NCBI GenBank assembly: GCA_030765145.1
Contig: JAVCDA010000010.1
Coordinates: 49,087-113,086, forward strand
DNA from: Candidatus Saelkia tenebricola
GTDB taxonomy: Bacteria; Omnitrophota; Gorgyraeia; Kaelpiales; Kaelpiaceae
Direction: 5' to 3'
DNA length: 64,000 nucleotides
Position 1 is the first letter of the stretch. Each line of letters starts with the position of its first letter. Both the position numbers and the translations under genes were made by a program. The notes under the pieces were generated by a model. The model saw nothing but the letters and a program-made list of their open reading frames with translations, made no database searches and was not told the origin of the DNA. This document shows positions 11,007 to 56,936 of this stretch, piece by piece.

Positions 11007-11007
11007 A

Positions 11008-11385
11008 TTAAATAATTTTTTTTATCTCTTCAAAAATAAAATCTATGTTATACACCTTGTAAAGAACCTTATCAATATTGCTGTCCTTGGCCATCTCCTG
11101 TGCATTTTCGGTAAGAGTATCTGTTATAAGAATTGACTTCATCTCTTTAAATCTGGAATCTTTTTTCAAAAACTTAAATAACAAAAATCCATCCCAATCC
11201 CATTGTGGAAATATCATCTCCAAAACTGCCACTTTGGGCTTTTGAGTCTGAATATAGTAGCAGGCATCAAAGGCTTCATCTGTAGTATAAACATTCTTTT
11301 CTGGGAAACCCTGTTTTATTTTTTCTGAAAGCAGATTTATAAATTGTGTATCGCTTCCACCAAGTATAATAAAATCCGAATTCAT
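11008..11385 (-). CDS. Stand-alone receiver-like (pseudo-REC) domain protein. Glu sits at the phosphoacceptor position.
   Basis: 125 aa with alternating beta-alpha pattern: DFIILGGSD (beta1, acidic pocket degenerate), KVAVLEMIFPQWDGF (beta3, E in place of the phospho-Asp), SILITDT (beta4 Thr), DKVLYK (beta5 Lys). Separated from pilB by 1 nt. Confidence 0.45.
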   Translation of the reverse strand: MNSDFIILGGSDTQFINLLSEKIKQGFPEKNVYTTDEAFDACYYIQTQKPKVAVLEMIFPQWDWDGFLLFKFLKKDSRFKEMKSILITDTLTENAQEMAKDSNIDKVLYKVYNIDFIFEEIKKII

Positions 11386-12893: not shown

Positions 12894-12897
12894 AGTT

Positions 12898-21708: not shown

Positions 21709-22090
21709 AACTACTATTGAACCAGTTATCCAGTATATTTTTAATTTCTAAATCAGGTGTAAAATTAGCAGAAAATATTAGTACATTGGCGTTATTATGT
21801 TCACGTGCCATTTTTGCCATATCAGCATTCAAACATAGAGCTCCTCTAATACCTTTAAATTTATTCGCTACAATAGACATACCTATACCGCTACCGCAAA
21901 TCAGTATTGCAGAATCAGCTTCTTTAGTGATAATCTTTTGAACAGCAATTTTACCGAAATCCGGATAATCGCATGGAGACTCATCATATGCTCCTACGTC
22001 GATAATATCTATATCCCGACTAATTAAGCAATCTTTAATGTTGTTTTTAAATTCAATACCTCTATGATCACTTGCTATTGTTACTTTCAT
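21656..22090 (-). CDS. rpiB: Ribose-5-phosphate isomerase B.
   Basis: [27 protein letters not shown]. Confidence 0.8.
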
Positions 22091-39016: not shown

Positions 39017-39802
39017 TTAAAACATGCTTCTACCTTGAGCCCCGTCTACAGGAATAGAAGCTCCATTGAGTAAAGCTGCTGCTTGGGAACAAATAAAAAC
39101 AACAACTCGCGCTATTTCATCAGGCACTCCAAACCGGCCCAATGGAAGCTCTTGTTTTATAAAATCCTCAACCTGAGCAGGGTTTTCTTTTAATTCTTTC
39201 TCCCATCCGGTATCAGGTATCATGATTGCACCCGGAGCAACACTATTAAAAGTAATATTACACTGGCTTAAATAAGGTTTTTTAGCCAGAGATTTCATAA
39301 ACGCTGTCTGAGCTGTTTTTGCCATACTAAACCAGGGCCTGGCGCCTGCCTCGCGGCCAAAAATAGAGGTTATAGTCACAACCCTTCCCCACTTTTGTTG
39401 ACGCAGATAAGGAATCACCTTGGTTGTAAACCTGACAGCCGAAAGCACATTTTTGTTATAAACTTCACTCCATACTTCTTCATCGGTTTCCTCAACTATT
39501 TCTTCCCCCCATCTGCCTCCCCCGCCGACATTGTTTATCAAAATATGAATCGTACCCCATTTGGCTATAATCTTTTCAATAACACTGTCTATATCCTTTT
39601 TTTCTGTAACATCTGCCTGCAAGGCTAAGACATCAACACCTTTCTCTTTTAACTCTTTTTCAGTTTGCTTAACCCGTTCGATATTCCGCGAACAAACAGA
39701 AACATTACATCCTTCATCGGCAAGAGCTAAAGCAATGCTCTTGCCGATACCATGCGTACCTCCAGTAACAAGTGCATATTTACCTTTAATTTTTAAATCC
39801 AT
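39017..39802 (-). CDS. Short-chain dehydrogenase/reductase (SDR).
   Basis: KYALVTGGTHGIGKSIA, NNVGG, and the YxxxK region. The true start is probably the internal ATG at 39802 (MDLKIKGK), which has an AAGGAG RBS. Confidence 0.75.
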   Translation of the reverse strand: MDLKIKGKYALVTGGTHGIGKSIALALADEGCNVSVCSRNIERVKQTEKELKEKGVDVLALQADVTEKKDIDSVIEKIIAKWGTIHILINNVGGGGRWGEEIVEETDEEVWSEVYNKNVLSAVRFTTKVIPYLRQQKWGRVVTITSIFGREAGARPWFSMAKTAQTAFMKSLAKKPYLSQCNITFNSVAPGAIMIPDTGWEKELKENPAQVEDFIKQELPLGRFGVPDEIARVVVFICSQAAALLNGASIPVDGAQGRSMF

Positions 39803-39822: not shown

Positions 39823-40764
39823 TTATTGAGAGAACACATCTAAAATTGTACTCACAACAGAATCGACATCTAAACCATACAAGCTGCGCATATATTCCCT
39901 GGAGCCGGTTTCGAAACAATGCTGATCCGGAATTGCTATTCGCTTTAAAAAAACATCTCCCCTGGCTTCAGCTAAAACCTCGCTTATAACTGTACCGATT
40001 CCTCCCTGGATAATATTTTCTTCTAAGGTTACTACAATTTTCGATTTATCAATCAGATTTAACAGCAATTCTATATTTAAAGGCTTGATTCTATAAAGAT
40101 CTAAAACTGCTGCCTTTATAGAATGGGATTTAAGTTCATCCGCTACTTTAACCGCCTCTTGAAGCATAATTCCGCCTGATATAATAGTTAAATCACTACC
40201 TTCCCTTACCTTGAAAATTCCACTTGAGAAATCCTTCTCTTTCTGTCGATCTATTAAAGGCAAAACACCTTTCTCAAGCCTTATATAAACGGGTGATGTA
40301 CTTTTATAGGCAATCTGGGCACAGGCTTGAGCAGTTACAGCATTCGAGGGATTTAATATCGTAATTTCAGGAAGCAAACGCATAAGAGCGATATCGCTTG
40401 TTCCGTGATGAGTAGGCCCGTCACTGGCATAAGAAAGCCCGGCACCTATACCTATGATACTTACTCCAAGATTCATAGCACAAATATCGATTTTAATCTG
40501 CTCGTAACATCTAAGCGTTGTGAACGGAATTATGCTGTAGATAAAAACATTCTTATCCACCAAAGATAATCCAGCTGCAATGCTCACCATGTTTTGTTCC
40601 GCAACAGCCATATTTATGAATTGGCTTGGAAGATCTTTTTTAAATTTAGCCAAACTAAAAGCACCCATGTCAGCTGTAAGGAATATTACATTCTTATCCT
40701 GTTGAGCAATACTATACAGCTGATCGAAAAATGCATCTCTAATATCTTTATTCAATGCTTTCAT
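39823..40764 (-). CDS. Split transketolase, C-terminal subunit (pyrimidine-binding plus C-terminal domain).
   Basis: LTADMG, EQNMVSIAAGL. Follows the N-terminal subunit with a 4-nt overlap. Confidence 0.8.
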   Translation of the reverse strand: MKALNKDIRDAFFDQLYSIAQQDKNVIFLTADMGAFSLAKFKKDLPSQFINMAVAEQNMVSIAAGLSLVDKNVFIYSIIPFTTLRCYEQIKIDICAMNLGVSIIGIGAGLSYASDGPTHHGTSDIALMRLLPEITILNPSNAVTAQACAQIAYKSTSPVYIRLEKGVLPLIDRQKEKDFSSGIFKVREGSDLTIISGGIMLQEAVKVADELKSHSIKAAVLDLYRIKPLNIELLLNLIDKSKIVVTLEENIIQGGIGTVISEVLAEARGDVFLKRIAIPDQHCFETGSREYMRSLYGLDVDSVVSTILDVFSQ

Positions 40765-41582
40765 AATTCAAGTTCTTTTTTTGCACGTTCTAAATCTTCT
40801 CCGCGAGGCACAGAATGGTGCCAATCTAAATTACCTTCCATAAAAGAAACACCCTTACCTTTAACGGTATTTGCTATCACAACCAGCGGTCTTTTTCCAA
40901 GCTTATTATGAAACTGTTTACAAACTGAAAGTAACTCTTGGTGAGAATGTCCATCTATGACAACCACATCCCAACCGCAGGAAACCCATTTCTTATCCAA
41001 CGGCTCTAAATCGAGACAATCTTTGAGAAAATCCGTAACACAAATCCCATTTCTATCAACAATGGCAACCAAATTATTTAATTTATGATGGCCTGCAAAC
41101 ATAGCAGCCTCCCAAACACTCCCCTCACAGCATTCTCCATCACCCAATAAAACACATGTGATAAAATCTTTAGCATCCATCTTCGCGCCTAAGGCAATCC
41201 CTGCACCTATTCCAAGTCCATGACCAAGAGACCCTGTGTCCGCTTCAATCCCGGGTATTTTTCTATCCGGGTGGCCTCTGAGAATAGATGTTTCTTTCTG
41301 GTAATTTTCAAGCTCTGAAAGAGCAAAATAGCCCAAATCAGCAAGCACAGCGTATAGGGAAGCTGCCGAATGCCCCTTGCTTAAAATAAATCTATCCCTA
41401 CCGGGTGATTCTTTATTCGTTGAATCAAAGCGAAGTATGCCACCGTAATACAGTGCAACTAAAATATCAGCGCATGAAAAAGCTCCTCCAATATGGCCTT
41501 TACCCGCAGATGAAATCATTTCTAAAACCTGCCTACGCACCCAACGGGATTTTTGTTCTAACTCTAATATGTTTTTCTGCAT
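40761..41582 (-). CDS. Split transketolase, N-terminal subunit (TPP-binding).
   Basis: GHIGGAFSCADIL, GSLGHGLGIGAGIALG, LGDGECCEG. Confidence 0.8.
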   Translation of the reverse strand: MQKNILELEQKSRWVRRQVLEMISSAGKGHIGGAFSCADILVALYYGGILRFDSTNKESPGRDRFILSKGHSAASLYAVLADLGYFALSELENYQKETSILRGHPDRKIPGIEADTGSLGHGLGIGAGIALGAKMDAKDFITCVLLGDGECCEGSVWEAAMFAGHHKLNNLVAIVDRNGICVTDFLKDCLDLEPLDKKWVSCGWDVVVIDGHSHQELLSVCKQFHNKLGKRPLVVIANTVKGKGVSFMEGNLDWHHSVPRGEDLERAKKELEL

Positions 41583-43093
41583 TAGTACTTTTTGAAAAAA
41601 TATACCTTAATATTCTTTAACACCCTTTTTACCACACCTTCTAATTTAGATGTAGTATTGCCTCTTGCTATATTAACAGCTAATCTAACCATTCGTCCAG
41701 GATGTGTTATGAACATAAGGCTGTAAAAACTGACAAATAAAAACAACCTCATTAAAGACAAAGTTAAAGGAGCAAAGTTCTTTGACCAAGATACATTTTT
41801 CGCTAAGTCTGCATAACCGAAAAGTCCAAAGAAGTACTCATCGTTTAATCTGATTCTTTTTCTATTCAATAAATCCTGGAATAACTCCGATCCCGGGTAA
41901 GGAATAAAAGGAAAAACATTAACTTCCTGAAGCCCTTTAGTCGCCAATTTCATAAGCAAAAAATAGGTCTTTAGAAAATCCTTAAATCTTTCCTCAGGCA
42001 ATCCTATGACAATATTCGTGCTCAAATTCATACCAGTTGTTAAACCGTCTTTTACTAAAGAAAACACCTTGTCTGGATTAGATTTTTTATTTACGCTTAT
42101 TAAAACATTTTTAGACCCTGACTCAACGGCAAAATCAAGTTCCCGACAACCCGCTTCTTGCATTAGCTCTAAAACATCAAAATCTAAATCTTCCGTCCTT
42201 AAAGTTGGAAGTTGCCAAGTAATATTAAGCCGACGTTTAATAATATCGCAACATAAATTGACAATGCTTTCTTTAGTAACCATTGCTGTAAGATCAGAGA
42301 AAACAAAATTATCCGCTCTATAGCGGGTGATATAATGCTGCATTTCATCTACAACTAAACTGGCACCCCTTGTAATCCAAGGGGTGCTCCACATGTGGGG
42401 ATTGGAGCAAAAACTACAGCTATAAGGACACCCGCGTGTTGCAAGCATCGGAATAGTACGGCCACGAGAAATATGATAATTCAATTCTCTGGATAGGTAA
42501 TTCTCCATCGGTGTTAAATCCCAGGCAGGGTAAGGGATTTTATCAATGTCTCTGATACGTTCTGCTCTTTGGGTGCAATGAAAATTACTGCCCTTATTGA
42601 TTCTGTAAACCAATCCGCGGATACCAGAAAACTCTTTTTTATTCTGCAGAGCATCAAGAAGCTGTACAAAAACACCTTCTCCTTCGCCAATTACACAGAC
42701 ATCCAGCTGGGGGCAATCTTTCATACAATACTCGGCTAAAGCCGAAACATGCTCGCCTCCTGCAACTAATACCGCTTCAGGGTTAAGTCTGGATACATAC
42801 TGGATCAATTCCCTGTGAAAAACCCAATCCTGGGAAAACATAGAACTGAACCCGATAACATCGCAATCTTTGAGCCGTTTTTTTAATGCAGAGAAATTCA
42901 TCCCATAAACCACATATTTGCCCCTTACAATCTCTGTGCACTCTATATCTTCACCGCACATATCTATAATGTCCACATCATATCCTGCCTTACGAGTTAC
43001 AGCAGCAATATAGCTTATGCCTAAAAAGGGAACCAAGTGTGCCCCCATTAAACCCACGCTATAAGCAGGAGGACGGATTAAGCTGATTTTCAT
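41582..43093 (-). CDS. B12-binding (class B) radical SAM enzyme, third paralog.
   Basis: B12-binding domain plus ATRGCPYSCSFCSNP. Confidence 0.7.
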   Translation of the reverse strand: MKISLIRPPAYSVGLMGAHLVPFLGISYIAAVTRKAGYDVDIIDMCGEDIECTEIVRGKYVVYGMNFSALKKRLKDCDVIGFSSMFSQDWVFHRELIQYVSRLNPEAVLVAGGEHVSALAEYCMKDCPQLDVCVIGEGEGVFVQLLDALQNKKEFSGIRGLVYRINKGSNFHCTQRAERIRDIDKIPYPAWDLTPMENYLSRELNYHISRGRTIPMLATRGCPYSCSFCSNPHMWSTPWITRGASLVVDEMQHYITRYRADNFVFSDLTAMVTKESIVNLCCDIIKRRLNITWQLPTLRTEDLDFDVLELMQEAGCRELDFAVESGSKNVLISVNKKSNPDKVFSLVKDGLTTGMNLSTNIVIGLPEERFKDFLKTYFLLMKLATKGLQEVNVFPFIPYPGSELFQDLLNRKRIRLNDEYFFGLFGYADLAKNVSWSKNFAPLTLSLMRLFLFVSFYSLMFITHPGRMVRLAVNIARGNTTSKLEGVVKRVLKNIKVYFFKKY

Positions 43094-43094
43094 T

Positions 43095-44216
43095 TTATCG
43101 TTTTAAATCAATTGTGCTGCAACAAGCACCGTTTTTATTCTTAAGATACGTTGGATGACTCCACATTTCTCTTATTAAACGCTGAAGCGGCTTTTTTCTG
43201 ACATTGCCAAAAGTATCGGGAAAAGCTACGCAAAGCTGGATATCTCCATAGGGTGAAATATTAAATATCTTGCCGTATAAAGCCTGACAAACCTTTTTCT
43301 TGCGCTTAACAGAATAAGCTCCTTCAATAAAAGCAAAGGAAGGATCAATATTCTCGATTACCCAGAGTTTTTCATCTTCGTTAAGCTCTATCTTCTTCTT
43401 CGCAATCCATTCTCCGGAAATTATGGGGAATAATATTCTTACGGCTGTTGCTTTAAGCTCTCGTGATAAATCAATGATTTTGGTTAAATCGCTTACATCA
43501 CCCGGCTGTGCAAACCCCTCTATTCTGCGCCGGGTTACATAGGTTGATACGATACAAGGAACACCTTCTTGGTGGCAAAAAGAAATTGCTGCCACCGCTC
43601 TCTTATAAATCCCCGGCAAACCCCGCAATTTATCATGTTCCTGTTCTTCTGCGCTATCTAAGCTTATGTTTATACAGCTTATGCCTGCATCTTTTAATCT
43701 TTTCACCATATCCCGGGTCAACAGCCAAGCATTGGTAGTTATTGAAATATACACCCCTTGTCGAGAGCCAAATCTAACCAACTCAACAATATCTTCTTTA
43801 AGGAGAGGCTCTCCACCGAAATAATCCACTTTAGGAATGCTGATTTTAACAGCCTGTTTCAAAAGACTTTTTATCTCATCAGCCGTAAGCTCTCTTTCTC
43901 TATCTACCTCAGAAAAATAATTTGAAACCGAACAATGCTTACATCTGCATTGACAGCTATAGGTCACAGACAGCTCAATAAGCCAGGGTACCTTTTTTTT
44001 AAAAACAGATGTTAACATCCAGTAACGAATCATTCTATATGCTTTTAAAAAAGTCATCCTGCTGAGCCCGACTTTTGAATACAATATTATTTTCCCGGCT
44101 TGTTTAAATACCGCTTTTATCTTTTTATCAATCATATCTTTTCGCCACACATTTATCACATATGTAATGCCCATTACAACACAAAATTCTGGATAATTCC
44201 ACCTTACCGCAGTCAA
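43095..44216 (-). CDS. Radical SAM enzyme with a SPASM/twitch-like C-terminal Cys cluster.
   Basis: SVTYSCQCRCKHC (CxxxCxxC), then a C-terminal CVAFPDTFGN..GACCS. The N-terminus is ambiguous because the ORF overlaps the upstream gene by about 90 nt. Confidence 0.6.
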   Translation of the reverse strand: MTAVRWNYPEFCVVMGITYVINVWRKDMIDKKIKAVFKQAGKIILYSKVGLSRMTFLKAYRMIRYWMLTSVFKKKVPWLIELSVTYSCQCRCKHCSVSNYFSEVDRERELTADEIKSLLKQAVKISIPKVDYFGGEPLLKEDIVELVRFGSRQGVYISITTNAWLLTRDMVKRLKDAGISCINISLDSAEEQEHDKLRGLPGIYKRAVAAISFCHQEGVPCIVSTYVTRRRIEGFAQPGDVSDLTKIIDLSRELKATAVRILFPIISGEWIAKKKIELNEDEKLWVIENIDPSFAFIEGAYSVKRKKKVCQALYGKIFNISPYGDIQLCVAFPDTFGNVRKKPLQRLIREMWSHPTYLKNKNGACCSTIDLKR

Positions 44217-44937
44217 GACATCTCACTTTTTCTTTAAACAATCTCACAACCATTGAATACCCACATATTAAACAAGGAACGGCATGAGTCGAACAAGGTG
44301 CCAAATTCTTAAATCTTAAAATACTCTTTAAAGTGAATAAAAAAGGAAAAGGCAAAGCTTTCCTTACAAGTTTTACATCTCCGGTACAAATAGTATTCAA
44401 TATTCCCGCTTTATCATCAGTCATAACTTCCGTATAGCTGCGGCCAACGAATTCGGCAGCTGTTGTATCAGTAGAAGAAAGACCGGGAATACCCAACTTT
44501 TCAGATACTCTCTTTGCCCGATAGTTATAAATAATTGAAGCGCCTAAAGCTGCATTATAAACCTCTATTGCATCCACAGAAAGCTCAGTTACCTTTTTTC
44601 CCAAGCCTAAAGGCAGGAACGGATGAACCGCAACAGCAATTCCACCCTGCGAATGTATCTGGTTGATTGTTTCATGAGCAGGTTGTAAATCAGCGATTTT
44701 TTCCTTAAGTCCCAGAGCAGTTAAATGACCTTCCTGACTGCATATTTCCTGACCAATTATAATAATAAAATCTTTTATCTCCTCTTTAATCTTAACCGCA
44801 TGGGAGAGGCTGAAAAAATTAGTAATTGCAGCACCGTCTAAATTGTTTTTCCCCAAAGCATATCTTAAATCGTCAGCCTCTATAAAAATTTTGCCTCGCG
44901 ATTCGCTATGGAGATGCAAGTCTAACTTGATAGACAT
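44128..44937 (-). CDS. PHP-domain metal-dependent phosphoesterase with a C-terminal Cys-rich zinc ribbon.
   Basis: LDLHLHSESRGKIF (the HxH of PHP), further His/Asp motifs, and a C-terminal CLICGY..CLDCG..CCNGHYICDKC. Confidence 0.5.
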   Translation of the reverse strand: MSIKLDLHLHSESRGKIFIEADDLRYALGKNNLDGAAITNFFSLSHAVKIKEEIKDFIIIIGQEICSQEGHLTALGLKEKIADLQPAHETINQIHSQGGIAVAVHPFLPLGLGKKVTELSVDAIEVYNAALGASIIYNYRAKRVSEKLGIPGLSSTDTTAAEFVGRSYTEVMTDDKAGILNTICTGDVKLVRKALPFPFLFTLKSILRFKNLAPCSTHAVPCLICGYSMVVRLFKEKVRCLDCGKVELSRILCCNGHYICDKCVAKRYD

Positions 44938-46034
44938 TTTCTACTTCTGGCAATAATTTTAGCCATTTCGAACATTATTCTAAGATAATATTCCGGTCTA
45001 TATATCAAATTATTTGACAAAGGCAACCCCCAGTGGCAATTGCATTTTTCTTTCACAATATTTTTACTGAATTTTTTCATCGAATCCGATTTTAAAATTT
45101 TATTAATATCATAACCGTTCTCTCTAAGATTCCCTACAGAATGCCACAACGGCTCGCATGGGAAAACATCCCCAACTTCATTTACCACAACCACTCTTTT
45201 CCCCGCCTTACATTGTTTATACATATTCCGATTTTTTAAAACCTTTTTTAAGAAATCGTTTTTCGTAATCCGTAAGGCAATAGTAAACAGAGAATGGAAT
45301 TCTTTTATGTTGTCTACAACAGTAGTATTTTCGATTTCATCGCAAAACTTGAAATACTCCTCCCAATTAAAATCAAAAGCTTCTTTATTAGAAACGCTAC
45401 CGTGAGTAACAGAAAAAACTACCCTGTCTAAATCCTTAAAATCTTGATCTAAGATATTAAATAATTCTTTAATATAATTCTGATTATAATGTGAGTACAC
45501 AACACACGCTTTGACTCTTAGATTCCTATATCTGTTTTTCAAAATAATCAACCCATCATACGTTTCCTTAAGTCTTTGAAAACTGTTTTCTAACCCGCGT
45601 ATTTCATCATGAACCGCTTCTGGCCCATCGATAGAAAGCTGTAAATCGACAATCATATCAGGACAATTTTTAAGAATATCTTCTGTCTGTTTTAAGATTC
45701 CCGCTGTAAAATACCCGTTTGTAGGAAGGTCTACTACTAAAGGAGGGGCGTTTTTATAAACCACTTTTATAATCTCAGATAAATCTTCCCTCATAAACGG
45801 TTCGCCCCCGGAAATACCCAGAATATTTATCAATTTTATATTTTTACTTATGTTATCGTATTCTTCTACAGTTAACTCATTTTTAGAACCGGAATTTTTT
45901 TTCATCTCCTCAATGTAAAAACACATTTTACAATTAGCATTACACTTGCCCGTAACAAAGAAAATTATATAGCTAGGGTAATTTAAAGTTCTAAACCACC
46001 TGGGCATTCTTCTCAATGATAAAGATTTCAGCAT
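44922..46034 (-). CDS. Radical SAM enzyme with a SPASM domain.
   Basis: FVTGKCNANCKMCFY, then a C-terminal cluster CEPLWHS..CNCHWGLP. Confidence 0.6.
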   Translation of the reverse strand: MLKSLSLRRMPRWFRTLNYPSYIIFFVTGKCNANCKMCFYIEEMKKNSGSKNELTVEEYDNISKNIKLINILGISGGEPFMREDLSEIIKVVYKNAPPLVVDLPTNGYFTAGILKQTEDILKNCPDMIVDLQLSIDGPEAVHDEIRGLENSFQRLKETYDGLIILKNRYRNLRVKACVVYSHYNQNYIKELFNILDQDFKDLDRVVFSVTHGSVSNKEAFDFNWEEYFKFCDEIENTTVVDNIKEFHSLFTIALRITKNDFLKKVLKNRNMYKQCKAGKRVVVVNEVGDVFPCEPLWHSVGNLRENGYDINKILKSDSMKKFSKNIVKEKCNCHWGLPLSNNLIYRPEYYLRIMFEMAKIIARSRKCLSS

Positions 46035-46077: not shown

Positions 46078-47010
46078 TTAAACGTTGGAAAACTTATTGT
46101 TTTTGATGACCTGATACCCCTTTATCAGTTCAGCAATACCTTCTTCTAAAGATATCTGGGGCTTAAATCCTGTTTTCTCTATTTTTTCATTACTGATAAC
46201 ATAATCTCTTTTGTCCGGATCTTCTGATATATCTGATTCTACTAAAAAAAGCTCCGGGATTTGATTCTTAATCTTTTCGGCCAGTTCCATTTTGCTAAGA
46301 TTAGCATCGCTTAACCCTACATTGTAAGGCTCATTTTTCATCTGCTCGAAATTATTAAGACAGTGTAAGAATACTTTGGCTACATCACGAACATGAATAT
46401 AATTCCTTTTAAAACCGGCTTCAAAAAGCACAATATACTTATCATTCAAGGCGCGATAGGTAAAATCATTGACTAAAAGATCCAATCTCATTCTGGGGCT
46501 GATTCCAAAAACAGTGGCAAGTCTTAAAGTAATACTATTGGGGGAATTCAAAATAACATTTTCCGCTTCTACCTTTAATTTTCCGTAAAGGGAAATCGGT
46601 TTTAACAAGGCTTCTTCTGTACAGTATTTATCTTTCTCGCCTATTCCATATCCACTGTTTGTAGTGGGAAAAATAATGATTTGCTCTTTGCTCCTTAAAT
46701 CATTTATCATTTTTATAGCATCTAATACAACTGAACGAGCTGTGGTGGGATCTTTTTTGCATAAAGGTGAACCTGTAAGGCAAGCTAAAGGTAAAATTAC
46801 ATCTACTTCTTTTATAAGTTTAGCAATCAGTGATTTATCCCGAGCATCACCTCGAATGATTTCTAGATTTTTGTTATTGCAACAATCCAATAAAGGTGTC
46901 TGGTTGTACATAAAATTATCCACTGCAATTATACAATGTGATTCTTTTAATAATGCAGGAACCAAAATAGCACCGATATAACCTGCTGCACCTGTAACTA
47001 ATATCTTCAT
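46078..47010 (-). CDS. NAD-dependent epimerase/dehydratase family protein.
   Basis: MKILVTGAAGYIGA Rossmann motif. About 310 aa of extended SDR. Confidence 0.7.
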   Translation of the reverse strand: MKILVTGAAGYIGAILVPALLKESHCIIAVDNFMYNQTPLLDCCNNKNLEIIRGDARDKSLIAKLIKEVDVILPLACLTGSPLCKKDPTTARSVVLDAIKMINDLRSKEQIIIFPTTNSGYGIGEKDKYCTEEALLKPISLYGKLKVEAENVILNSPNSITLRLATVFGISPRMRLDLLVNDFTYRALNDKYIVLFEAGFKRNYIHVRDVAKVFLHCLNNFEQMKNEPYNVGLSDANLSKMELAEKIKNQIPELFLVESDISEDPDKRDYVISNEKIEKTGFKPQISLEEGIAELIKGYQVIKNNKFSNV

Positions 47011-49002: not shown

Positions 49003-49980
49003 TTATCTGAATAAATATTTTTTTAAATCTTTCTTATTGGGCAATATAGACTCCTTAGCAAATTTAAAAGCTTCGGTAAGTTCTTTGTCTATCGTTTTTG
49101 AAATTTTTGATTTCTTTTCTTTTGTTAAGATATTATTTTTTAAAAGCTTTCTCTCTAAACTTTTGAGAGGGTCTTTTCTTATCCACTCCTTCCATTCGTT
49201 AATATTTCTATAAGTATCTTTATGCGGATCTCCTGCCCCGGCATGAGCTCTAAAGCGATATGCCCTGCACTCAAGAAGCACCGGCCCCCTTCCTCTTCGG
49301 GCACAATTAATAGCTTCTCTTGATTTCAAGTAAACCTCACACACATCCGAACCATCAATTTGATAAGCTGGAATATCAAAAGCCTTACCGCGCATAGATA
49401 TATCAGGATTCGCTTCTCTTGCACTTTGATGTGAACAGACAGAATAGAAATTATTTTCACAGACATAGACAATCGGTAATTTTTTTAAAGTAGCGAAATT
49501 CATACTCTCAAAGAACACCCCTTCTTCAGTTGCTGCATCTCCGAAAAATACAACCGAAACTTTACCGTCTTTTTTCAAAACAGAACTTAACGCCGCACCG
49601 GTAGCAATAGGTATACTGCCTGCGACAATCGCCGATGAGCCCATGTGGCCAACTTTCGTTGCTATTAAATGCATGGAACCACCCCTCCCCTTAGAACAAC
49701 CGGTTTCTTTACAATACAACTCCGCAACCAATTTTTTAACATCTCCTCCTTTGGCTATATAGTGACCATGGCTGCGGTGATTGCTGAACAGATAATCATC
49801 TTTTTTTAAATTGGCACACACTCCGCTTGAGATTGCTTCCTGACCGATACAGAGATGCACCGGCGTCTTCATCTCATCCTTATGATACTCTGCTTCGATT
49901 TTAAGCTGAAGTTTTCTAATCTTAAGCATTTCCTGATAAAGCTTAAGTAAAGTTGTGCTTGAGATAGACTTCATTCTCAT
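49003..49980 (-). CDS. TPP-dependent 2-oxoacid/acetoin dehydrogenase E1 component, alpha subunit-like.
   Basis: IGQEAISSG, GGSMHL, and the TPP motif FFGDAATEEG..VCENN. Confidence 0.75.
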   Translation of the reverse strand: MRMKSISSTTLLKLYQEMLKIRKLQLKIEAEYHKDEMKTPVHLCIGQEAISSGVCANLKKDDYLFSNHRSHGHYIAKGGDVKKLVAELYCKETGCSKGRGGSMHLIATKVGHMGSSAIVAGSIPIATGAALSSVLKKDGKVSVVFFGDAATEEGVFFESMNFATLKKLPIVYVCENNFYSVCSHQSAREANPDISMRGKAFDIPAYQIDGSDVCEVYLKSREAINCARRGRGPVLLECRAYRFRAHAGAGDPHKDTYRNINEWKEWIRKDPLKSLERKLLKNNILTKEKKSKISKTIDKELTEAFKFAKESILPNKKDLKKYLFR

Positions 49981-49987
49981 ATTATAG

Positions 49988-50692
49988 TCAATGCCAATAA
50001 AATTTTTCTTTTAACACTTGCATGAGATATGCCGCACCCCATTTCAGTACTTTTAATTTTCTTTCGCCTCCTATACGAGGAGGCTCATCTCCCGGAATAT
50101 CACAACATTTAAGTTTCTTTTTCCCCGCCCGTACAGATAAAAGCGGCTCAACACCTATTTTAGTGCGAAAAATTCTCTCTTCTGTTTGATAGCTTTCTTC
50201 CCGATCCAAGTCCAACGCTTTAAAAATTTCGCTCTTCCATCCCCTGAATATCACCATTGCATCAGTATAGCGTGCACCGTAAAGCAAATTTATTAAAGAA
50301 GTAAACATCCAGTTCCCAAAAGCTGTTATAACGTCATCATCATAACTCTTAACATCTTTTGCATAACGGGAAACTATCACCATATCATAGCCTTCGCTCA
50401 TTTTCTCTATTAATTCGGGAATTTTCTCTGGAATAGAATTTCCATCCGGACTAAAAGTAATAACAAAATCCGTCTTAACACACTCCATCGCTTCGATGTA
50501 AGCACAGCGTATACCTTCTTTCTTCTGTACTATTAGTTTATATCCACACTCTTTAACATATTTAATTGTCCCATCTGTAGATCCGCCATCAACAATGATA
50601 ATCTCGTCTACCCAGTCTTGGTTTATTTTTGGCATAATTATCTTCATGCCTTCAATTTCATTGAGGGTAAAAACCAATAATGTTACTTTCAT
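49988..50692 (-). CDS. Small GT2-like glycosyltransferase. Paralog of the gene at 38334-39011.
   Basis: MKVTLLVFTLNEIEGM..IIIVDGGSTDGT..SPDGNSIPEKIPEL. The same motifs appear in the same order as in the paralog. Confidence 0.5.
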   Translation of the reverse strand: MKVTLLVFTLNEIEGMKIIMPKINQDWVDEIIIVDGGSTDGTIKYVKECGYKLIVQKKEGIRCAYIEAMECVKTDFVITFSPDGNSIPEKIPELIEKMSEGYDMVIVSRYAKDVKSYDDDVITAFGNWMFTSLINLLYGARYTDAMVIFRGWKSEIFKALDLDREESYQTEERIFRTKIGVEPLLSVRAGKKKLKCCDIPGDEPPRIGGERKLKVLKWGAAYLMQVLKEKFYWH

Positions 50693-51448: not shown

Positions 51449-52336
51449 TCATTTTTTCAAAATATCATATTTTTCAATATTGTCCGCGACAATACCATTT
51501 AGATATTCTAAAACTTCTTTTACCTCTGGAGCGTCTTTCATAAGGTGCTTAAATCTGCCCTGTATTTTTAAAAATTCTTCTATGGGCTTTAGTTCCTTAA
51601 GTTTCATGGTATTTACAAGTTTCCCGTTTTCATACTCCACAATAGGGAAAAGCCCTGTTTCAACAACAAGTTTCCCCACTTTGTCTGTCAAATCAGCTCC
51701 ATGTCGCCATCCCAGAGGACAGGGAACAAAAATGTGTAAAAACTTAGGCCCTTTTATAGAAAAAGCTTTCTTAACCTTTCTTTCTAAATCTCTAATATAG
51801 CCAACAGATGCAGTCCCAACATAAGGTATGTTGTGAGCAGCGCAAATCGCAGCCATCGTCTTCTTAGGACGCGGATTACCCAAAGAAAGCTTCCCTGCAG
51901 GAGTTGTTGTTGTGCTAGCATAAGCAGGAGTCATACCGCTTCTTTGAATCCCTGTATTCATATAAGCTTCATTATCATACATCACATAAAGTATATCTTG
52001 ACCTCTCTCAAGCATACCAGAGAGAGCTTGTAATCCAATATCTGCAGTTCCACCATCTCCGCCTTGAGCTATAACATTAATCTTATCTTTTTTACCCAAA
52101 TGTCTCAATGCCACCTCAACACCGGATGCAACTGCAGCAGAATTTTCAAAAAGGGAATGAATCCAGGGCACACACCAAGATGTGTGAGGAAACCCTGTTG
52201 AGAAAACCTCTAAACAACCTGTCGCATTTGTCACTATAGTATTACTTCCTGCAGCATTTAAAACAATTCGTGCAGCCATAGACTGTCCGCAGCCAGCACA
52301 GGCAGTATGTCCGGAAACAAATAAATTTTCTTGCAT
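51449..52336 (-). CDS. porB: 2-oxoacid:ferredoxin oxidoreductase beta subunit (TPP-binding).
   Basis: HTACAGCGQ.., GGDGGTADIG. Confidence 0.85.
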   Translation of the reverse strand: MQENLFVSGHTACAGCGQSMAARIVLNAAGSNTIVTNATGCLEVFSTGFPHTSWCVPWIHSLFENSAAVASGVEVALRHLGKKDKINVIAQGGDGGTADIGLQALSGMLERGQDILYVMYDNEAYMNTGIQRSGMTPAYASTTTTPAGKLSLGNPRPKKTMAAICAAHNIPYVGTASVGYIRDLERKVKKAFSIKGPKFLHIFVPCPLGWRHGADLTDKVGKLVVETGLFPIVEYENGKLVNTMKLKELKPIEEFLKIQGRFKHLMKDAPEVKEVLEYLNGIVADNIEKYDILKK

Positions 52337-52349
52337 TAAAACCTCCCTC

Positions 52350-53546
52350 TTATTCTTCTTCTAAAACCATAATGGGTGATTCTTCCTTATACCACTTTTT
52401 TAAATCTATAAACCTTACCGCTTTGGTCTCCTCATCTAAAAGACTAAACATTTCTTTTACAGTTTCCTTTTTTATATCTCTTCCTCCAAGCCCTACAACA
52501 AAACCATTTATAGATTTAGCAGATTTTTTTTCTTGCAACAATGCTGAAATCTCAAGATGTAAAGGACCTGAAGACCCCAAAGAAATCGCCTTATCTACAA
52601 CACCAATCTTTTCAATATCTTTCAATGCTTCATAAATCACATCTTTGGGAAAAGGTCGATAAGCTATAATCCTCAGCAGACCAACGCGCTCACCATTAGC
52701 TCTTAATTCATCAACAGTATCTTTAATAGTTCCTGCAACAGATCCCATCCCTACCAATACTTTATCAGCATCTTCGGTTTTATATTTCTCAACGATTAAA
52801 GGTACTTTCCTGCCCATAATGCTTTCGAATTCTTTTTCTATCCCAGGCAACAGGGCTAAAACTTCTTCCATTGTTTTATGAATTGCATAACGTGTTTCCA
52901 TATAAACATCCGGCGCCCCAAGAAGCCCCATAGTAAGAGGATTCTCCGTATCCAATTTATATAAAGCATCGTATTTCGGTAAGAATTTATCAACTACATC
53001 TTGCTCTACCAGATCCAAATTTTCATAGCCGTGAGAAAGAATATATCCATCCATACAAACCATGCAAGGCAGCATAACATCTTTATTTTCTGCTATTTTA
53101 TAGGCAACGTAATGCAAATCCTGCACATCCTGATTATTCTCTGCATAAAACTGCATCCAACCCGCATCTCTTATTGCCATTGAATCCTGATGGTCATTCC
53201 AAATATTTATTGGCGCTGAAAGCGCTCTGTTTACACATGTTAAAACAACCGGCAACCTCATACCTGCTATATTGAACAAAACTTCACTCATTAAAATTAA
53301 TCCTTGTGAGCTCGTAGCGGTAAAAGATCTTACGCCTGTTGCCGTTGAACCTAAAACAACTGACGCCGCAGAATGTTCTGATTCTACATTAATAAATTCC
53401 GCAGCTAATTCCCCATCGGCAACCATTTCTGAAAGCCTTTCTACTATATGTGTTTGAGGCGTAATCGGATATGCGCAAACAACACCCGGCTTTATCCTTT
53501 TAACTGCTTCAGCAACAGCATGTGAACCTTCCATAAATACTTTCAT
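52350..53546 (-). CDS. porA: 2-oxoacid:ferredoxin oxidoreductase alpha subunit.
   Basis: MEGSHAVAEAVK..CAYPITPQT. Confidence 0.85.
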   Translation of the reverse strand: MKVFMEGSHAVAEAVKRIKPGVVCAYPITPQTHIVERLSEMVADGELAAEFINVESEHSAASVVLGSTATGVRSFTATSSQGLILMSEVLFNIAGMRLPVVLTCVNRALSAPINIWNDHQDSMAIRDAGWMQFYAENNQDVQDLHYVAYKIAENKDVMLPCMVCMDGYILSHGYENLDLVEQDVVDKFLPKYDALYKLDTENPLTMGLLGAPDVYMETRYAIHKTMEEVLALLPGIEKEFESIMGRKVPLIVEKYKTEDADKVLVGMGSVAGTIKDTVDELRANGERVGLLRIIAYRPFPKDVIYEALKDIEKIGVVDKAISLGSSGPLHLEISALLQEKKSAKSINGFVVGLGGRDIKKETVKEMFSLLDEETKAVRFIDLKKWYKEESPIMVLEEE

Positions 53547-53803
53547 TGTTCCTCCTCCTGGACCATTTCAATGTCTTTTTTGGGGCAAATTACAGCACAC
53601 AAACCGCATCCTTTGCAATAATCATAATTAACCTGATATTCATTCTTATTTTCGCCCGTAATGCATCCTTCCGGGCAAATATCAACACACATATTGCAAG
53701 CGATACAGTCCTTATGCAACATTTTTGGTCTTTTTTTCACCCGCCAAGAACCTGTTTTATTTCTTAAACTCGTACCGGGTTTAGAAATGATAGGGACAAA
53801 CAT
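53543..53803 (-). CDS. porD: 2-oxoacid:ferredoxin oxidoreductase delta subunit (2x[4Fe-4S]).
   Basis: CIACNMCVDICP..CKGCGLCAVICP. Confidence 0.8.
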   Translation of the reverse strand: MFVPIISKPGTSLRNKTGSWRVKKRPKMLHKDCIACNMCVDICPEGCITGENKNEYQVNYDYCKGCGLCAVICPKKDIEMVQEEEQ

Positions 53804-53883
53804 TTAATACCTCCTTTTAATGAGTTCATGATTTACGGAGTACTAACGAACGTAAACCATCTGAACGAACTATATAGATTATA

Positions 53884-54435
53884 TTAATTTTCATTTGCCT
53901 TTAAATCCAAAGCATACTGATACCCTTTATGGGCACAAACAGCATTTTTTTCTCCTATTTCACCTTTAAATCTTTCCAGTATCGCACTTTCAAGACTTTC
54001 TATTGTAATTTCTTTAGATATTGCCGCAAATGCTCCCAACACTGCGGTATTTCCTAAAGGTCGGCCAATCACTTCCAAAGCTATTTGATTTGCCGGAATA
54101 GTAAAAATTTTAATATTATCTTTATCTAGTTCATATTCTTTCCCAGAATTAATAATTACAATCCCACCGTCTTTAGTATCGCTGAATACATCCTGACTTT
54201 TCATAAGCGTAGCATCAATAACAAGGGCATAATCAGGATTGTATATTTTAGAACGCATTCTGATAGGATTTTCATCCACCCTGATGAAAGCATTCATAGG
54301 CGCTCCCATTCTAGCAGCACCAAAATGAGGGAAAGCATAAGCAAATTTATCTTCTTTAAAATAAGACCCCCCTACAATAACTGCCGTAGTAATAGCGCCT
54401 TGACCTGCCCGGGCATATACTGTTATTTCTTTCAT
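53884..54435 (-). CDS. porG: 2-oxoacid:ferredoxin oxidoreductase gamma subunit.
   Basis: ARAGQGAITTA..FGAARMGAP. Confidence 0.8.
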   Translation of the reverse strand: MKEITVYARAGQGAITTAVIVGGSYFKEDKFAYAFPHFGAARMGAPMNAFIRVDENPIRMRSKIYNPDYALVIDATLMKSQDVFSDTKDGGIVIINSGKEYELDKDNIKIFTIPANQIALEVIGRPLGNTAVLGAFAAISKEITIESLESAILERFKGEIGEKNAVCAHKGYQYALDLKANEN

Positions 54436-54448
54436 TATTCCTCCTTTA

Positions 54449-54600
54449 ATGAGCCCGTTACTTATGAAACAAAGTTGACATAAGCAACCCTAGCAAATTA
54501 TGAACCCGTTACTTATAGAACAAATTTGACATAAACAACCCTGGCAAATTATGAACCCATTACTTATGGAACAAAGTTGACGTAAATGACATAGACGAAT
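54449..54600. repeat. 51-bp direct tandem repeat, about 2.7 copies, in the por promoter region.
   Basis: Units start at 54449, 54500 and 54551: ATGARCCCRTTACTTATRGAACAAARTTGACATAARCAACCCTRGCAAATT. The third copy diverges after TTGACGTAAA. Confidence 0.75.
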
Positions 54601-54651
54601 TCCACCTCATCCTTGATTTGCTCTGCAAACCAACAAGGAGTATATATTTCA

Positions 54652-56049
54652 TTAATCCGCCCCGTCAAATTGGGCATCTACCAGTTCCTGTGGCAATAAA
54701 TCCTTTGCTTTTTTAGTCACCTTAATCGACTTAATGTATTTATTTACTATTGCTTTTGTATCTTCCACCTTTAACTGCCCGAACAAAAATTCAAATTCTT
54801 CTTCCAGCTTTTGGGCAATTTTATTTCTTAAATCCATACTAATACAAAAAATCTCTTTTTTAAACGACCCTAATGCCTGTTTTCGAGACTGATATAAAAA
54901 TTGCTCCTCAGTTTGACCTTCTTTCCATCCAGATTTAAAATTCTCCTTCAGCCAGCTATATATGTTTGATCTTAACTCTTCAGGCATATTGTCATATACG
55001 ATATTTTGAAACTGTGTTGCTAAATGAATTTCTGCTGCTGCAGCTTCTGAGAATTTACCAAACGCTTCTTTCGGTAAAGTCGATGCTCCATGCTGAACAG
55101 CTCCTGCCATTTTATATTCATCACGTGATACATTAGATAAGTTTTTCAAGGTTTCAAAATCCACCTTAACTGAAGCTACTGTTCCATCAGGCAAAACTAC
55201 GCCTCCGTGAGTAGTGCCAGTTTGAATGCTTATTTTGCTAATACCTTCGCATGAACTCTCAAGTTCTTTTAAATATCCTTGCATAAATGCACGCAAATCC
55301 TCAGACGTAGAATTCCTACCTCCAACTTCACCTATCTCTCCTCCTATTGAAATAGTTACACCTTCGACTTCCTGTGCCCTGATATATTTTGTCAATTCCG
55401 ATGTCACCCAATAGTTATTATATTGCTGTTCCTCTAATGAACTTTTAGATAAATCAACTAAGGTAGAAGCATCAATATCAATGTTATAGAAACCAGCATT
55501 TATTGCTTCTTTAATCAATTTCTTCATATCAGATAACGATTGCTCTTTGTTGCTTTGATAGTCTGTCAATTTGAGCTGAAAATGATCACCTTGAACAAAA
55601 ACAGCACCTTGATACCCCTCTTTAATCGCAGCAGCAAGACAAATTGCAACATACTCTAGAGGACGTTGCGAAGTATAACCCATTTCAGAACGGGCAATTT
55701 CAAATATAAAAGCACCTGCATTAATACGTTTAGCAACCCGATAAACTGCACGAGCAGCATCATAGCTTAACACTCTTAAATTCATGGCCGGAACAGTAAA
55801 TCCTGCGGCTTCTTTTCTGCCCATGGCACAGTATAAATCGTGAATCGATGCCGGATAAACCCCACACTGCGAGGCTACATTCCATATAACTTGCGCATAA
55901 TTAGCTTTCTTTTGCAAATCTTCCTCATAAATAATACTCTCAACTAATTGATCAATTCCTTTTTCACGCAGAAGTTGAGAATCTTGAATTACAACACTTT
56001 CCTCCTGAAACTCTAAACCCTGGACTTCAGTACCTCTTAAATTCATCAA
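54652..56049 (-). CDS. Class II fructose-bisphosphate aldolase family, long form (465 aa).
   Basis: Matches FbaA motifs in order: FTVPAMN, VFVQGDHFQ (like HTDHC), NIDIDAS, SIGGEIGEVGG, TTHGGV, AVQHGAS, EIHLATQFQ. Confidence 0.55.
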   Translation of the reverse strand: MMNLRGTEVQGLEFQEESVVIQDSQLLREKGIDQLVESIIYEEDLQKKANYAQVIWNVASQCGVYPASIHDLYCAMGRKEAAGFTVPAMNLRVLSYDAARAVYRVAKRINAGAFIFEIARSEMGYTSQRPLEYVAICLAAAIKEGYQGAVFVQGDHFQLKLTDYQSNKEQSLSDMKKLIKEAINAGFYNIDIDASTLVDLSKSSLEEQQYNNYWVTSELTKYIRAQEVEGVTISIGGEIGEVGGRNSTSEDLRAFMQGYLKELESSCEGISKISIQTGTTHGGVVLPDGTVASVKVDFETLKNLSNVSRDEYKMAGAVQHGASTLPKEAFGKFSEAAAAEIHLATQFQNIVYDNMPEELRSNIYSWLKENFKSGWKEGQTEEQFLYQSRKQALGSFKKEIFCISMDLRNKIAQKLEEEFEFLFGQLKVEDTKAIVNKYIKSIKVTKKAKDLLPQELVDAQFDGAD

Positions 56050-56063
56050 AACACCTCCATTTC

Positions 56064-56936
56064 TTAAATTAAACCTGATAGTTTCAATATCTTTGGAACT
56101 GACTCCGCTTTACCCAAAGCCATCACATGAACACCGTGAGCAAATTTTTTCAATTCTACTATCAATCGTACTGCTATTTCAACACCTTTCTCTACTTGAT
56201 TCGCAGCAGACTTCATTTCTTCAATTATGTCTTGAGGGATATTTATCCCACTAACATTCTTATTCATATATTCTGCCATTTTTGAGGATTTAAGAACTAC
56301 AATGCCCGCAAGTACATAAACATTTAAATCTTTAATAGAATCCATAAAGACTTTGAATTTCTCAACATCATATATCGCCTGGCTTTGCAAAAAACACGCG
56401 CCTGATTGAACCTTTTTTCTGGTCTTTACAATCTCAAGCTCTAAAGGAGAAGCTTCAGGGAAACATGCCGCCCCAATAAAAAAATTCGTCGGTTTGTTCA
56501 GCTTGTTCCCTGCTGAATCATAACCTTTATTAAGTCCTTCTACAATTCCTATCAACTGCACCGAATCAACATCAAATACTGCTTTCGCCTGGATATGGTC
56601 ACCTTGTTCAATAGCATCACCTGTAAGGCAAAGAACGTTGTCTACTCCTAAAATAGACGCCCCTAACAAATCCGATTGTATCCCCAAGCGATTCCTATCC
56701 CGGGCCGTAATCTGATAAATAGGCTGGATATTATTTTTTATCAAAATATCTGCAATTGCTAAAACTGATGCACGCATTACGGAACTCTGATTGTCCGTTA
56801 TATTGACTGCTCGAACGGACTGTTTATATATATCTATTTCTCGCGTGATATCTGAGATATCAGTCCCTTTAGGAGGCGCAATTTCCGCAGTAACAACAAA
56901 TTCTCCCTTTTCTAACAGTTGCCTCAATTCGCTCAT
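56064..56936 (-). CDS. metF: Methylenetetrahydrofolate reductase (MetF family).
   Basis: VVTAEIAPPKG..ITDNQ..LCLTGD..IGAACFPE pattern of MTHFR TIM-barrel enzymes. Confidence 0.65.
   Translation of the reverse strand: MSELRQLLEKGEFVVTAEIAPPKGTDISDITREIDIYKQSVRAVNITDNQSSVMRASVLAIADILIKNNIQPIYQITARDRNRLGIQSDLLGASILGVDNVLCLTGDAIEQGDHIQAKAVFDVDSVQLIGIVEGLNKGYDSAGNKLNKPTNFFIGAACFPEASPLELEIVKTRKKVQSGACFLQSQAIYDVEKFKVFMDSIKDLNVYVLAGIVVLKSSKMAEYMNKNVSGINIPQDIIEEMKSAANQVEKGVEIAVRLIVELKKFAHGVHVMALGKAESVPKILKLSGLI

Follow-up and report, generated by a model that had tools for sequence, protein, structure and literature searches.

What is a transketolase doing in the middle of a gene cluster for a surface glycan? 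The question is raised by a window of 64,000 nucleotides, the whole stretch of DNA analysed here, from the Omnitrophota metagenome-assembled genome (MAG) 'Candidatus Saelkia tenebricola' (Ace Lake), in which two adjacent genes, TktN and TktC, encode the halves of a split transketolase among genes for radical S-adenosylmethionine (rSAM) enzymes, short-chain dehydrogenases/reductases (SDRs) and glycosyltransferases. An earlier note on this DNA had proposed that the enzyme is specific to the locus and stands outside pentose phosphate metabolism, a proposal now strongly supported by synteny across 60 further genomes, by fusions to methyltransferases and by a change at the phosphate-binding site throughout its clade. 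Of the two roles offered there, both of them proposals read from the genes, transfer of a two-carbon (C2) ketol onto a sugar appears to fit the neighbourhood better and simple supply of sedoheptulose-7-phosphate (S7P) for heptose synthesis less well, because TktC usually precedes a reductase or methyltransferase and TktN usually follows a sugar-branching thiamine diphosphate (ThDP) enzyme or a cobalamin-binding (B12) rSAM enzyme. We put at about even the chance that the pair would transfer a C2 ketol onto the carbonyl of an activated, probably GDP-heptose-type, sugar, with ketoreduction and methylation to follow. The family of the pair, its intact catalytic residues, its altered phosphate site, its conserved neighbourhood and its fusions can be read directly from the sequence.

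The TktN/TktC pair and its active site

Open reading frames (ORFs) of the window were assigned to families with Pfam and NCBIfam profiles, and solved relatives were taken from a PDB search. The separate N-terminal (ThDP) and C-terminal transketolase genes that the earlier note had described are confirmed as minus-strand ORFs by both Pfam and PDB matches:

40761-41582 (-): TktN, ThDP/PP-domain (alpha) chain, 273 aa, Pfam Transketolase_N
39823-40764 (-): TktC, Pyr plus C-terminal-domain (beta) chain, 313 aa, Pfam Transket_pyr and Transketolase_C

TktN matches Transketolase_N over residues 15-271 (E 8.5e-39, 133.9 bits) and TktC matches Transket_pyr (1.4e-29) and Transketolase_C (6.5e-25), the pair thus carrying all three domains that define the transketolase superfamily. 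The closest solved relative of both chains is the split transketolase of Carboxydothermus hydrogenoformans (TktN against 6YAK chain A, 7.8e-72; TktC against 6YAJ, 1.4e-46), followed for TktC by DXS (1.2e-33) and human transketolase (1e-31); the E-values of the pair are far beyond chance. The two genes stand in the order N then C and overlap by ATGA, an arrangement by which they are predicted to be translationally coupled, and the start of TktN overlaps the stop of the upstream B12-rSAM gene as TAATG. A clade-specific pattern scan over one genome per GTDB species yielded 60 further loci, in nearly all of which the adjacency of the split pair is kept; a few representatives are single-chain N+C fusions.

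Against the NCBIfam transketolase equivalog NF004559, whose cut-off of 488 bits belongs to a full-length model, TktN scores 267 bits and TktC 183.9 bits, and no other transketolase equivalog comes close. The beta chain also resembles DXS, with whose C-terminal half it aligns over its full length and whose NCBIfam model (dxs) it matches at 175.5 bits, near its transketolase score; database labels within the clade are divided between 'transketolase' and 'DXS'. The alpha chain, however, is transketolase-like, reaching only 25.6 bits for DXP_synthase_N against its 133.9 bits for Transketolase_N, and the protein is split in two and lies in no isoprenoid context, so that the pair does not qualify as a DXS. 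The Carboxydothermus enzyme shares with the window pair the two-chain N/C architecture, the ThDP-Mg motif, the activating Glu and the catalytic His residues, but is just 45% (N chain) and 34% (C chain) identical to it, and possesses a canonical phosphate-binding His and a longer Ser loop, both of which are missing from the window clade.

In the alpha chain His30, His71, His104, Asp148 of the GDG motif, Asn178 and His255 are all kept, and the ThDP/Mg motif reads GDGECCEG...DRNG. His30 and His255, equivalent to the catalytic pair His30/His263 of the yeast enzyme, are conserved in the clade. The beta chain keeps Glu56 (yeast Glu418), Asp115 (Asp477) and His119 (His481). The ThDP motif, the activating Glu and the catalytic His pair, by which members of the superfamily are recognised, are conserved across the clade, and by this conservation of residues the window pair should be a catalytically competent ThDP carboligase of the transketolase type.

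The substrate-phosphate tetrad of EC 2.2.1.1 (yeast Arg359, Ser386, His469 and Arg528) is not intact. Arg9 (yeast Arg359) is invariant in the clade, and position 165 (yeast Arg528) is Lys in the window protein and Lys or Arg among its relatives; the loop of Ser386 is short by one residue and has Ala or Phe, and Gly107 replaces the phosphate-binding His (yeast His469, human 416) in every clade member. The clade has gained histidines of its own, within GSLGHG and WHH of the alpha chain and THH of the beta chain, together with the alpha-chain changes Gln121 to His and Gly256 to His. An exhaustive TktC search was made over 1.84 billion representatives clustered at 50% identity, and its best 150 matches (201-383 bits, 33-59% identity to TktC) were examined at the active-site positions. 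Among these the His469 position is Gly in 146 and His in none, and the Arg359 equivalent is retained in 146 of the 150. Asp477, a position of stereo-recognition, is retained in just 76, the others having Leu, Ala, Ser, Glu and further residues. At least 150 such clusters outscore the Carboxydothermus beta chain 6YAJ (162 bits, from a separate PDB search).

The clade is both large and taxonomically broad. At E <= 1e-20 TktC finds 2334 relatives in the database; apart from its self match, a protein of the Ca. Saelkia MAG that is 100% identical, the best 120 are 55-64% identical. An exact look-up of the TktN sequence matched no record. The orthologues in the 60 further species-representative genomes show 36-76% identity. 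Their carriers include Planctomycetota, Elusimicrobia, Firestonebacteria, Omnitrophota, Patescibacteria, Dehalococcoidia/Chloroflexota, Desulfuromonadaceae and Geobacter MAGs, SAR324, Acidobacteriota and Latescibacterota, two archaeal MAGs (one Woesearchaeota, one Methanoregulaceae) and one isolate, Heliobacterium mobile DSM 6151; there is no actinomycete among the 60 loci. This spread cuts across taxonomy, suggesting horizontal transfer rather than vertical housekeeping inheritance. In a neighbour-joining tree, built with few outgroups and without support values, the clade and a sister group separate from DXS and from the transketolases of Carboxydothermus and human. Literature searches on split transketolase combined with gene clusters, with HddA/GDP and with O-antigen/E1/heptose returned nothing describing this clade, and the Ace Lake paper that names Ca. 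Saelkia mentions neither transketolase nor the pentose phosphate pathway of the organism.

Conserved neighbourhood and the glycan operon

Synteny was followed by searching the proteins of the glycan island with tblastn against all loci, after which 1084 ORFs were clustered de novo and the clusters annotated by Pfam. Two layouts recur. Type A, the window's own, reads [SDR]-rSAM_SPASM-PHP-rSAM-B12rSAM-TktN-TktC-SDR-GT2-Epi-B12rSAM(x1-2)-GT-C-like, where GT2 is a family 2 glycosyltransferase, often with GHMP, nucleotidyltransferase (NTP-transferase), DegT and E1alpha/beta genes close by. In type B the upstream half consists of GMD-like 4,6-dehydratase-E1alpha-E1beta-[class-I aminotransferase]-[YerE/AHAS-like ThDP enzyme]-TktN-TktC(-methyltransferase), and the downstream half of an aldo-keto reductase (AKR) followed by methyltransferase-Epi-RmlC-like-Epi-GHMP-NTP-transferase-[SIS-HAD]; some type B loci also have NUDIX and Wzm/Wzt genes.

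Counted over the 52 loci for which 12 kb or more of sequence was available, a methyltransferase of some kind is present in 49, an NDP-sugar SDR (epimerase/dehydratase) in 47, a GDP-heptose-type gene in 41 and another ThDP enzyme (E1alpha/beta, YerE-like or a second split transketolase) in 38. E1alpha or E1beta accompanies the pair in 28-29 of these loci and a GMD-like 4,6-dehydratase in 27. As for the genes immediately adjacent, in 26 of 51 loci TktC is directly followed by an SDR (17) or an AKR (9) and in 12 more by a methyltransferase (7 fused, 5 separate), and TktN is directly preceded by E1beta (14), a B12-rSAM enzyme (13), a YerE-like enzyme (12) or a second split transketolase (4). When 139 further, unclassified neighbours were scanned with Pfam, mainly glycosyltransferases, TPR proteins and methyltransferases came up, and no pentose phosphate family was among the families with three or more members.

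In several loci the association is covalent. One uninterrupted ORF of 783 aa (L067, 7641-9992) joins the orthologue of the window's upstream B12-rSAM enzyme to TktN, and in eight loci (L015, L017, L030, L033, L035, L036, L038 and L060) the TktC ORF runs on at its C-terminus into a class-I SAM methyltransferase, giving fusion proteins of 628-693 aa. In other loci the same methyltransferase stands as the next gene after TktC, and the 50%-identity library likewise contains TktC-methyltransferase fusions and single-chain N+C forms (P0131, P0217, P0242). A PDB search with the fused methyltransferase domain gave one weak polyketide synthase match only and was uninformative. These fusions tie the transketolase to methylation of the same intermediate.

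The YerE/AHAS-like ThDP enzyme (about 562 aa) occurs in L024, L031, L037, L039, L040, L046-L049, L055-L057, L059, L061 and L063, in nearly all of these loci directly upstream of TktN and sometimes preceded by a class-I/II aminotransferase; all three ThDP types, E1alpha/beta, YerE-like and transketolase, occur together in L040, L047, L059, L061 and L063. Six loci hold a second, divergent split transketolase with 32-35% identity to window TktC:

L009, 365-1318: second split transketolase
L024, 16580-17617: second split transketolase
L033, 299-1249: second split transketolase
L036, 8145-9098: second split transketolase
L038, 8148-9101: second split transketolase
L041, 8147-9094: second split transketolase

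These second pairs, which make up the sister group, also lack the His469 equivalent and have Thr or Ser in place of Asp477; in loci of the Geobacter/Desulfuromonadaceae type they lie directly upstream of the main pair, in the spot held elsewhere by E1alpha/beta. The cassette of the isolate H. mobile (L051, NZ_WNKU01000013.1) runs HAD-NTP-transferase-SIS-E1alpha-E1beta-MT-TktN-TktC-Epi-...-B12rSAM-AKR-AKR-...-Epi-RmlC-Epi (MT, methyltransferase), with a GmhB-type HAD protein, an HddC-like protein, a GmhA-type SIS protein, E1alpha/beta, a B12-rSAM enzyme, two AKRs and an RmlC-like protein. In another locus (L066, 1-6100) a type B cassette (GMD-E1alpha-E1beta-TktN-TktC-MT-B12rSAM...) adjoins flagellin, FliT and TPR-glycosyltransferase genes, an adjacency that hints at flagellin as the target of the modified sugar in some organisms.

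In the window itself the pair belongs to an island of 21 tightly packed co-directional genes that extends over 23 kb, from 50692 down to 27348 on the minus strand. Besides TktN and TktC it contains:

49988-50692 (-): first gene, small GT2, AglJ-like by best NCBIfam match
49003-49980 (-): E1alpha, Pfam E1_dh 2.2e-68, NCBIfam pyruvate dehydrogenase E1 alpha 337 bits
47952-49001 (-): E1beta, Pfam Transket_pyr and Transketolase_C, NCBIfam pyruvate dehydrogenase E1 beta 325 bits
47015-47950 (-): Fcl-like extended SDR, Pfam Epimerase, GDP-L-fucose synthase 356 bits (cut-off 500)
46078-47010 (-): GalE/RmlD-like extended SDR, Pfam Epimerase
44922-46034 (-): rSAM-SPASM enzyme, non-B12, Pfam/NCBIfam
44128-44937 (-): PHP-family metallophosphatase, Pfam PHP_C, NCBIfam CehA/McbA domain, kept in type A loci
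43095-44216 (-): AhbD/NirJ/BlsE-like rSAM enzyme, non-B12, Pfam/NCBIfam
41582-43093 (-): class B (cobalamin) rSAM enzyme directly upstream of TktN, Pfam B12-binding 1.1e-17, Radical_SAM 7.5e-14
39017-39801 (-): classical SDR, FabG-like, 261 aa, Pfam adh_short 2.5e-44
38334-39011 (-): GT2, polyprenyl-phosphate glycosyltransferase-like, best matches AglJ / dolichyl-P hexose transferase
37363-38337 (-): extended SDR Epi3, Pfam
35837-37366 and 34378-35844 (-): two more B12-rSAM enzymes, Pfam
32090-34387 (-): polytopic membrane protein, 765 aa, about 10 predicted transmembrane (TM) segments (residues 1-475) ahead of a soluble part, one more TM segment at the C-terminus
31033-32028 (-): GHMP kinase, HddA-like, NCBIfam HddA 168 bits (cut-off 600)
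30341-31036 (-): nucleotidyltransferase, HddC-like, NCBIfam HddC 162 bits (cut-off 300)
29154-30344 (-): DegT/RfbH-like pyridoxal phosphate enzyme, best matches RfbH 262 bits and PseC 234 bits
27348-29150 (-): PMT_2/ArnT-like GT-C, distal end of the operon, 11 predicted TM segments

The pair is flanked by a class B rSAM gene upstream and an SDR gene downstream, as had been described before; the true start of the SDR is the ATG at 39801, behind an AAGGAG ribosome-binding site, and not the TTG at 39919. The HddA-like and HddC-like proteins have a predicted role in sugar 1-phosphorylation and NDP activation, and the GHMP orthologues in related loci are 49-74% identical. The link to heptose that the earlier note drew is upheld by these two genes and by the GmhA-type SIS and GmhB-type HAD genes of related loci; the HddA and HddC scores fall far under the equivalog cut-offs, so that the sugar may not be a standard heptose. 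The PHP phosphatase could possibly stand in for GmhB. The window ORFs scanned include neither an SIS (GmhA) gene nor a second transketolase. As to enzymes that would make a keto sugar, the island offers three extended SDRs and a DegT/RfbH-like protein, and a GMD orthologue is missing. The 765-aa membrane protein, which has no Pfam or NCBIfam match and recurs in type A loci as the close of the module, alongside a GT2 of the polyprenyl-P type, is probably an unclassified GT-C-type transferase that uses a lipid-linked sugar.

The E1alpha/beta pair, lying between a GT2 and the Fcl-like SDR, is probably an enzyme of the alpha-KADH2 type that puts a pyruvate-derived C2 branch onto a keto sugar, which would give the island two distinct ThDP enzymes for C2 transfer. 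Its assignment to a pyruvate dehydrogenase complex was considered and rejected, as no E2 or E3 (lipoyl) gene occurs among the window ORFs scanned. The operon encodes five rSAM enzymes (three class B cobalamin, one SPASM, one other) along with the PHP phosphatase, and none of the five reaches any NCBIfam equivalog cut-off. For the upstream B12-rSAM enzyme the best NCBIfam match is a P-methyltransferase family; a phosphonate pathway was rejected, the score being 160 bits against a cut-off of 575 and the island ORFs giving no Pfam match to phosphoenolpyruvate mutase. The many rSAM genes also raised a role in lipid synthesis, against which the explicit sugar-activation and glycosyltransferase genes count.

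Outside the island one further gene bears on the question:

21656-22090 (-): RpiB, 144 aa, about 17.7 kb from the transketolase pair

This is the RpiB gene which the earlier note had placed some 18 kb away. It sits in a Sua5-LMW phosphatase-RpiB-GlyA block beside purine-synthesis genes, a housekeeping setting that has nothing to do with the island. Immediately ahead of the island are matches to pyruvate:ferredoxin oxidoreductase (POR) beta, alpha and gamma, and beyond them a 465-aa class-II aldolase-like protein, MTHFR and a GH57+DUF3536 protein (central-metabolism stretches 51449-54435 and 54652-59356, minus strand); this context (51449-59356) contains no transketolase partner genes. A second stretch related to glycans (394-7278) encodes two TPR proteins, two GT2s and, on the plus strand, a 611-aa protein (4774-6609) for which 8 TM segments are predicted and which matches no family; PilZ, T2SS-F, T2SS-E and secretin genes come next, at 7304-14280.

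Possible roles of the pair

The systems with which the pair can best be compared are the ThDP enzymes that branch keto sugars. Two groups are known, the E1alpha/beta type and the YerE-like type (PMC12247030), and the scheme published for acyl-branched sugars, as in YerE/YerF and ErwE/ErwF, is ThDP-dependent branching followed by reduction with NAD(P)H (PMC9306805). Both the alpha-KADH2 group (aldgamycin, kosinostatin, KbDH of kibdelomycin) and the YerE-like group (YerE, ErwE, MMAR_2332) form C-C bonds on NDP-keto sugars ahead of a reductase, and it is enzymes of these kinds that accompany the transketolase pair, usually immediately upstream. They belong to other ThDP superfamilies and draw on pyruvate or longer alpha-keto acids as donors, whereas an enzyme of the transketolase type would deliver a hydroxylated C2 unit. 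Closer in kind are the split-gene transketolases of miharamycin and amipurimycin biosynthesis, proposed but not proven to move a hydroxyacetyl unit onto a keto sugar, with 13 further candidates that all come from Streptomyces biosynthetic gene clusters (PMC12247030). There too a split transketolase sits within a sugar-tailoring cluster, with a proposed C2 ketol addition to a keto sugar and later modification. Those enzymes, compared here with the window clade by description only, serve actinomycete antibiotic pathways; the window clade, in contrast, occupies cell-surface and flagellar glycan loci of many other groups, where it is coupled to B12-rSAM or class-I methylases.

A further likeness is to the pathway of GDP-D-glycero-alpha-D-manno-heptose (GmhA, HddA, GmhB, HddC) with its downstream modifiers of the GMD, RmlC and Fcl types. 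The island's kinase and nucleotidyltransferase best match HddA and HddC, and related loci contain SIS, HAD, GMD-like and RmlC-like genes. To our knowledge the characterised pathway has no ThDP enzyme, and we know of no transketolase in the well-studied GDP-heptose clusters of Campylobacter and Aneurinibacillus.

Set against these systems, the position of the pair, after GMD, E1alpha/beta or a YerE-like enzyme and before a reductase and a methylase, matches the published logic of branching and then reduction, and in the window the SDR lies directly downstream. In the mechanism that we favour, ThDP would be activated by Glu56 of the beta chain and would take a two-carbon ketol, as dihydroxyethyl-ThDP, from a ketose phosphate or hydroxypyruvate. 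This C2 unit would be added to the carbonyl carbon of an activated sugar, likeliest a GDP-linked keto sugar of the heptose type made by the HddA/HddC-like and SDR enzymes of the island, giving a hydroxyacetyl-branched or C2-extended product. The adjacent SDR would reduce the ketone so formed, and methylation of the product would fall to the cobalamin rSAM enzyme, whether adjacent or fused; the small GT2 would then load the finished sugar on polyprenyl phosphate and the 765-aa GT-C-like protein would move it to a surface polymer. Here we infer the donor, the acceptor, the carbon attacked (a ring ketone or a side-chain aldehyde) and the order of the steps.

Several points weigh against C2 transfer onto an activated sugar. 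The retained Arg359 equivalent and the Lys or Arg at position 528 make a phosphorylated substrate still plausible from the residues, and the GmhA and GmhB genes of related loci keep a role in building the heptose skeleton possible. In vitro use of a ketone or an NDP-sugar as acceptor has yet to be demonstrated for any transketolase (PMC12247030). No orthologue of the GMD-type 4,6-dehydratase, which could make a keto acceptor, is found in the window island. The tree that separates the clade has few outgroups and no support values, and the presence of three ThDP enzymes in some loci makes the assignment of a given C-C bond to the transketolase insecure.

The first two of these points feed an alternative that we consider unlikely, in which the pair would act before activation, turning an aldose phosphate into S7P, or into a heptulose- or octulose-phosphate of an unusual kind, that a GmhA-type isomerase, the HddA-like kinase, a PHP or HAD phosphatase and the HddC-like enzyme would convert to an NDP-sugar. 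The lincosamide octose route (LmbR/N/P/K/O) would be a parallel. The native acceptors of transketolases are aldehydes, the two basic residues are compatible with a phosphate ester, and alongside the HddA-like and HddC-like genes of the island there are SIS and HAD genes in related loci, including that of H. mobile. Yet the window ORFs scanned lack an SIS gene, and across the clade the phosphate-binding His is gone and the pair stands not beside an SIS/HAD/kinase block but between branching enzymes or GMD and reductases or methyltransferases; the methylase fusions and the tandem second pairs are hard to square with a supply of S7P, and the Campylobacter and Aneurinibacillus clusters noted above are not known to contain the enzyme. 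Quite improbable, in our estimate, is a different ThDP chemistry in the same pathway, either DXS-like transfer of an acetyl or hydroxyethyl group from pyruvate or the reverse reaction, in which a C2 ketol or acetyl branch set by the neighbouring E1alpha/beta or YerE-like enzyme would be cleaved off or relocated. The near-equal scores of TktC for DXS and transketolase and its DXS matches in the PDB would suit this chemistry, as would the place of the pair, which in most loci comes right after another ThDP enzyme that forms acyloins, and the extra His residues (WHH, THH, GSLGHG), which suggest a modified active site; the alpha chain, however, is clearly of the transketolase type by its Pfam scores, and it conserves His30 and His255, which in transketolases bind the C1 hydroxyl of the ketol donor.

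That the pair is an ordinary pentose phosphate transketolase which happens to sit in a glycan operon seems very improbable indeed. The split form is the housekeeping enzyme of some anaerobes, such as Carboxydothermus (PDB 6YAK), and RpiB is encoded within the same window. Against this, the genes that surround the pair in related loci with context are for sugar tailoring and not for pentose phosphate metabolism, its nearest relatives cross taxonomic lines, it appears translationally coupled to a B12-rSAM gene, the conserved phosphate-binding His is lost, and the two halves taken together (267 + 184 bits) remain under the NCBIfam cut-off of 488. By the phosphate tetrad and the equivalog score the pair does not have the marks of a pentose phosphate enzyme, its local context in a glycan operon may point the same way, and synteny across taxa points to a conserved role within the cassette even if this were the only transketolase of the genome.

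Possible meaning for cell-surface glycans

It may be, with somewhat less than an even chance, that C2 ketol transfer extends from the window pair to the clade as a whole. The clade would then be a large and so far unrecognised radiation of transketolase-like enzymes without the phosphate-binding His, which branch or extend nucleotide-activated heptose-type sugars by a C2 ketol and work in series with E1alpha/beta, YerE-like enzymes and cobalamin rSAM or class-I methylases. ThDP-dependent sugar branching is known for the YerE-like and E1alpha/beta enzymes and, for transketolases, has only been proposed in a few Streptomyces antibiotic clusters; what is new here is a much larger and taxonomically broad transketolase-like clade at glycan loci, with a diagnostic change in the active site and with fusions to methylases. 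H. mobile DSM 6151, an isolate that carries the cassette and lends itself to genetics and glycan chemistry, makes the hypothesis directly testable.

If transfer of a hydroxylated C2 unit is borne out, the clade would represent a new enzyme class for glycobiology and biocatalysis, leading to alpha-hydroxylated tertiary alcohols or chain-extended sugars, and the database names 'transketolase' and 'DXS' would be corrected. Omnitrophota, Patescibacteria, Planctomycetota and others would be predicted to carry branched or higher-carbon surface sugars as yet unknown. Should the reading of a wider radiation also hold, it would be the first case of transketolase-type sugar tailoring in primary cell-surface glycans, and the envelopes and flagella of mostly uncultured microbes would bear heavily branched higher-carbon sugars.

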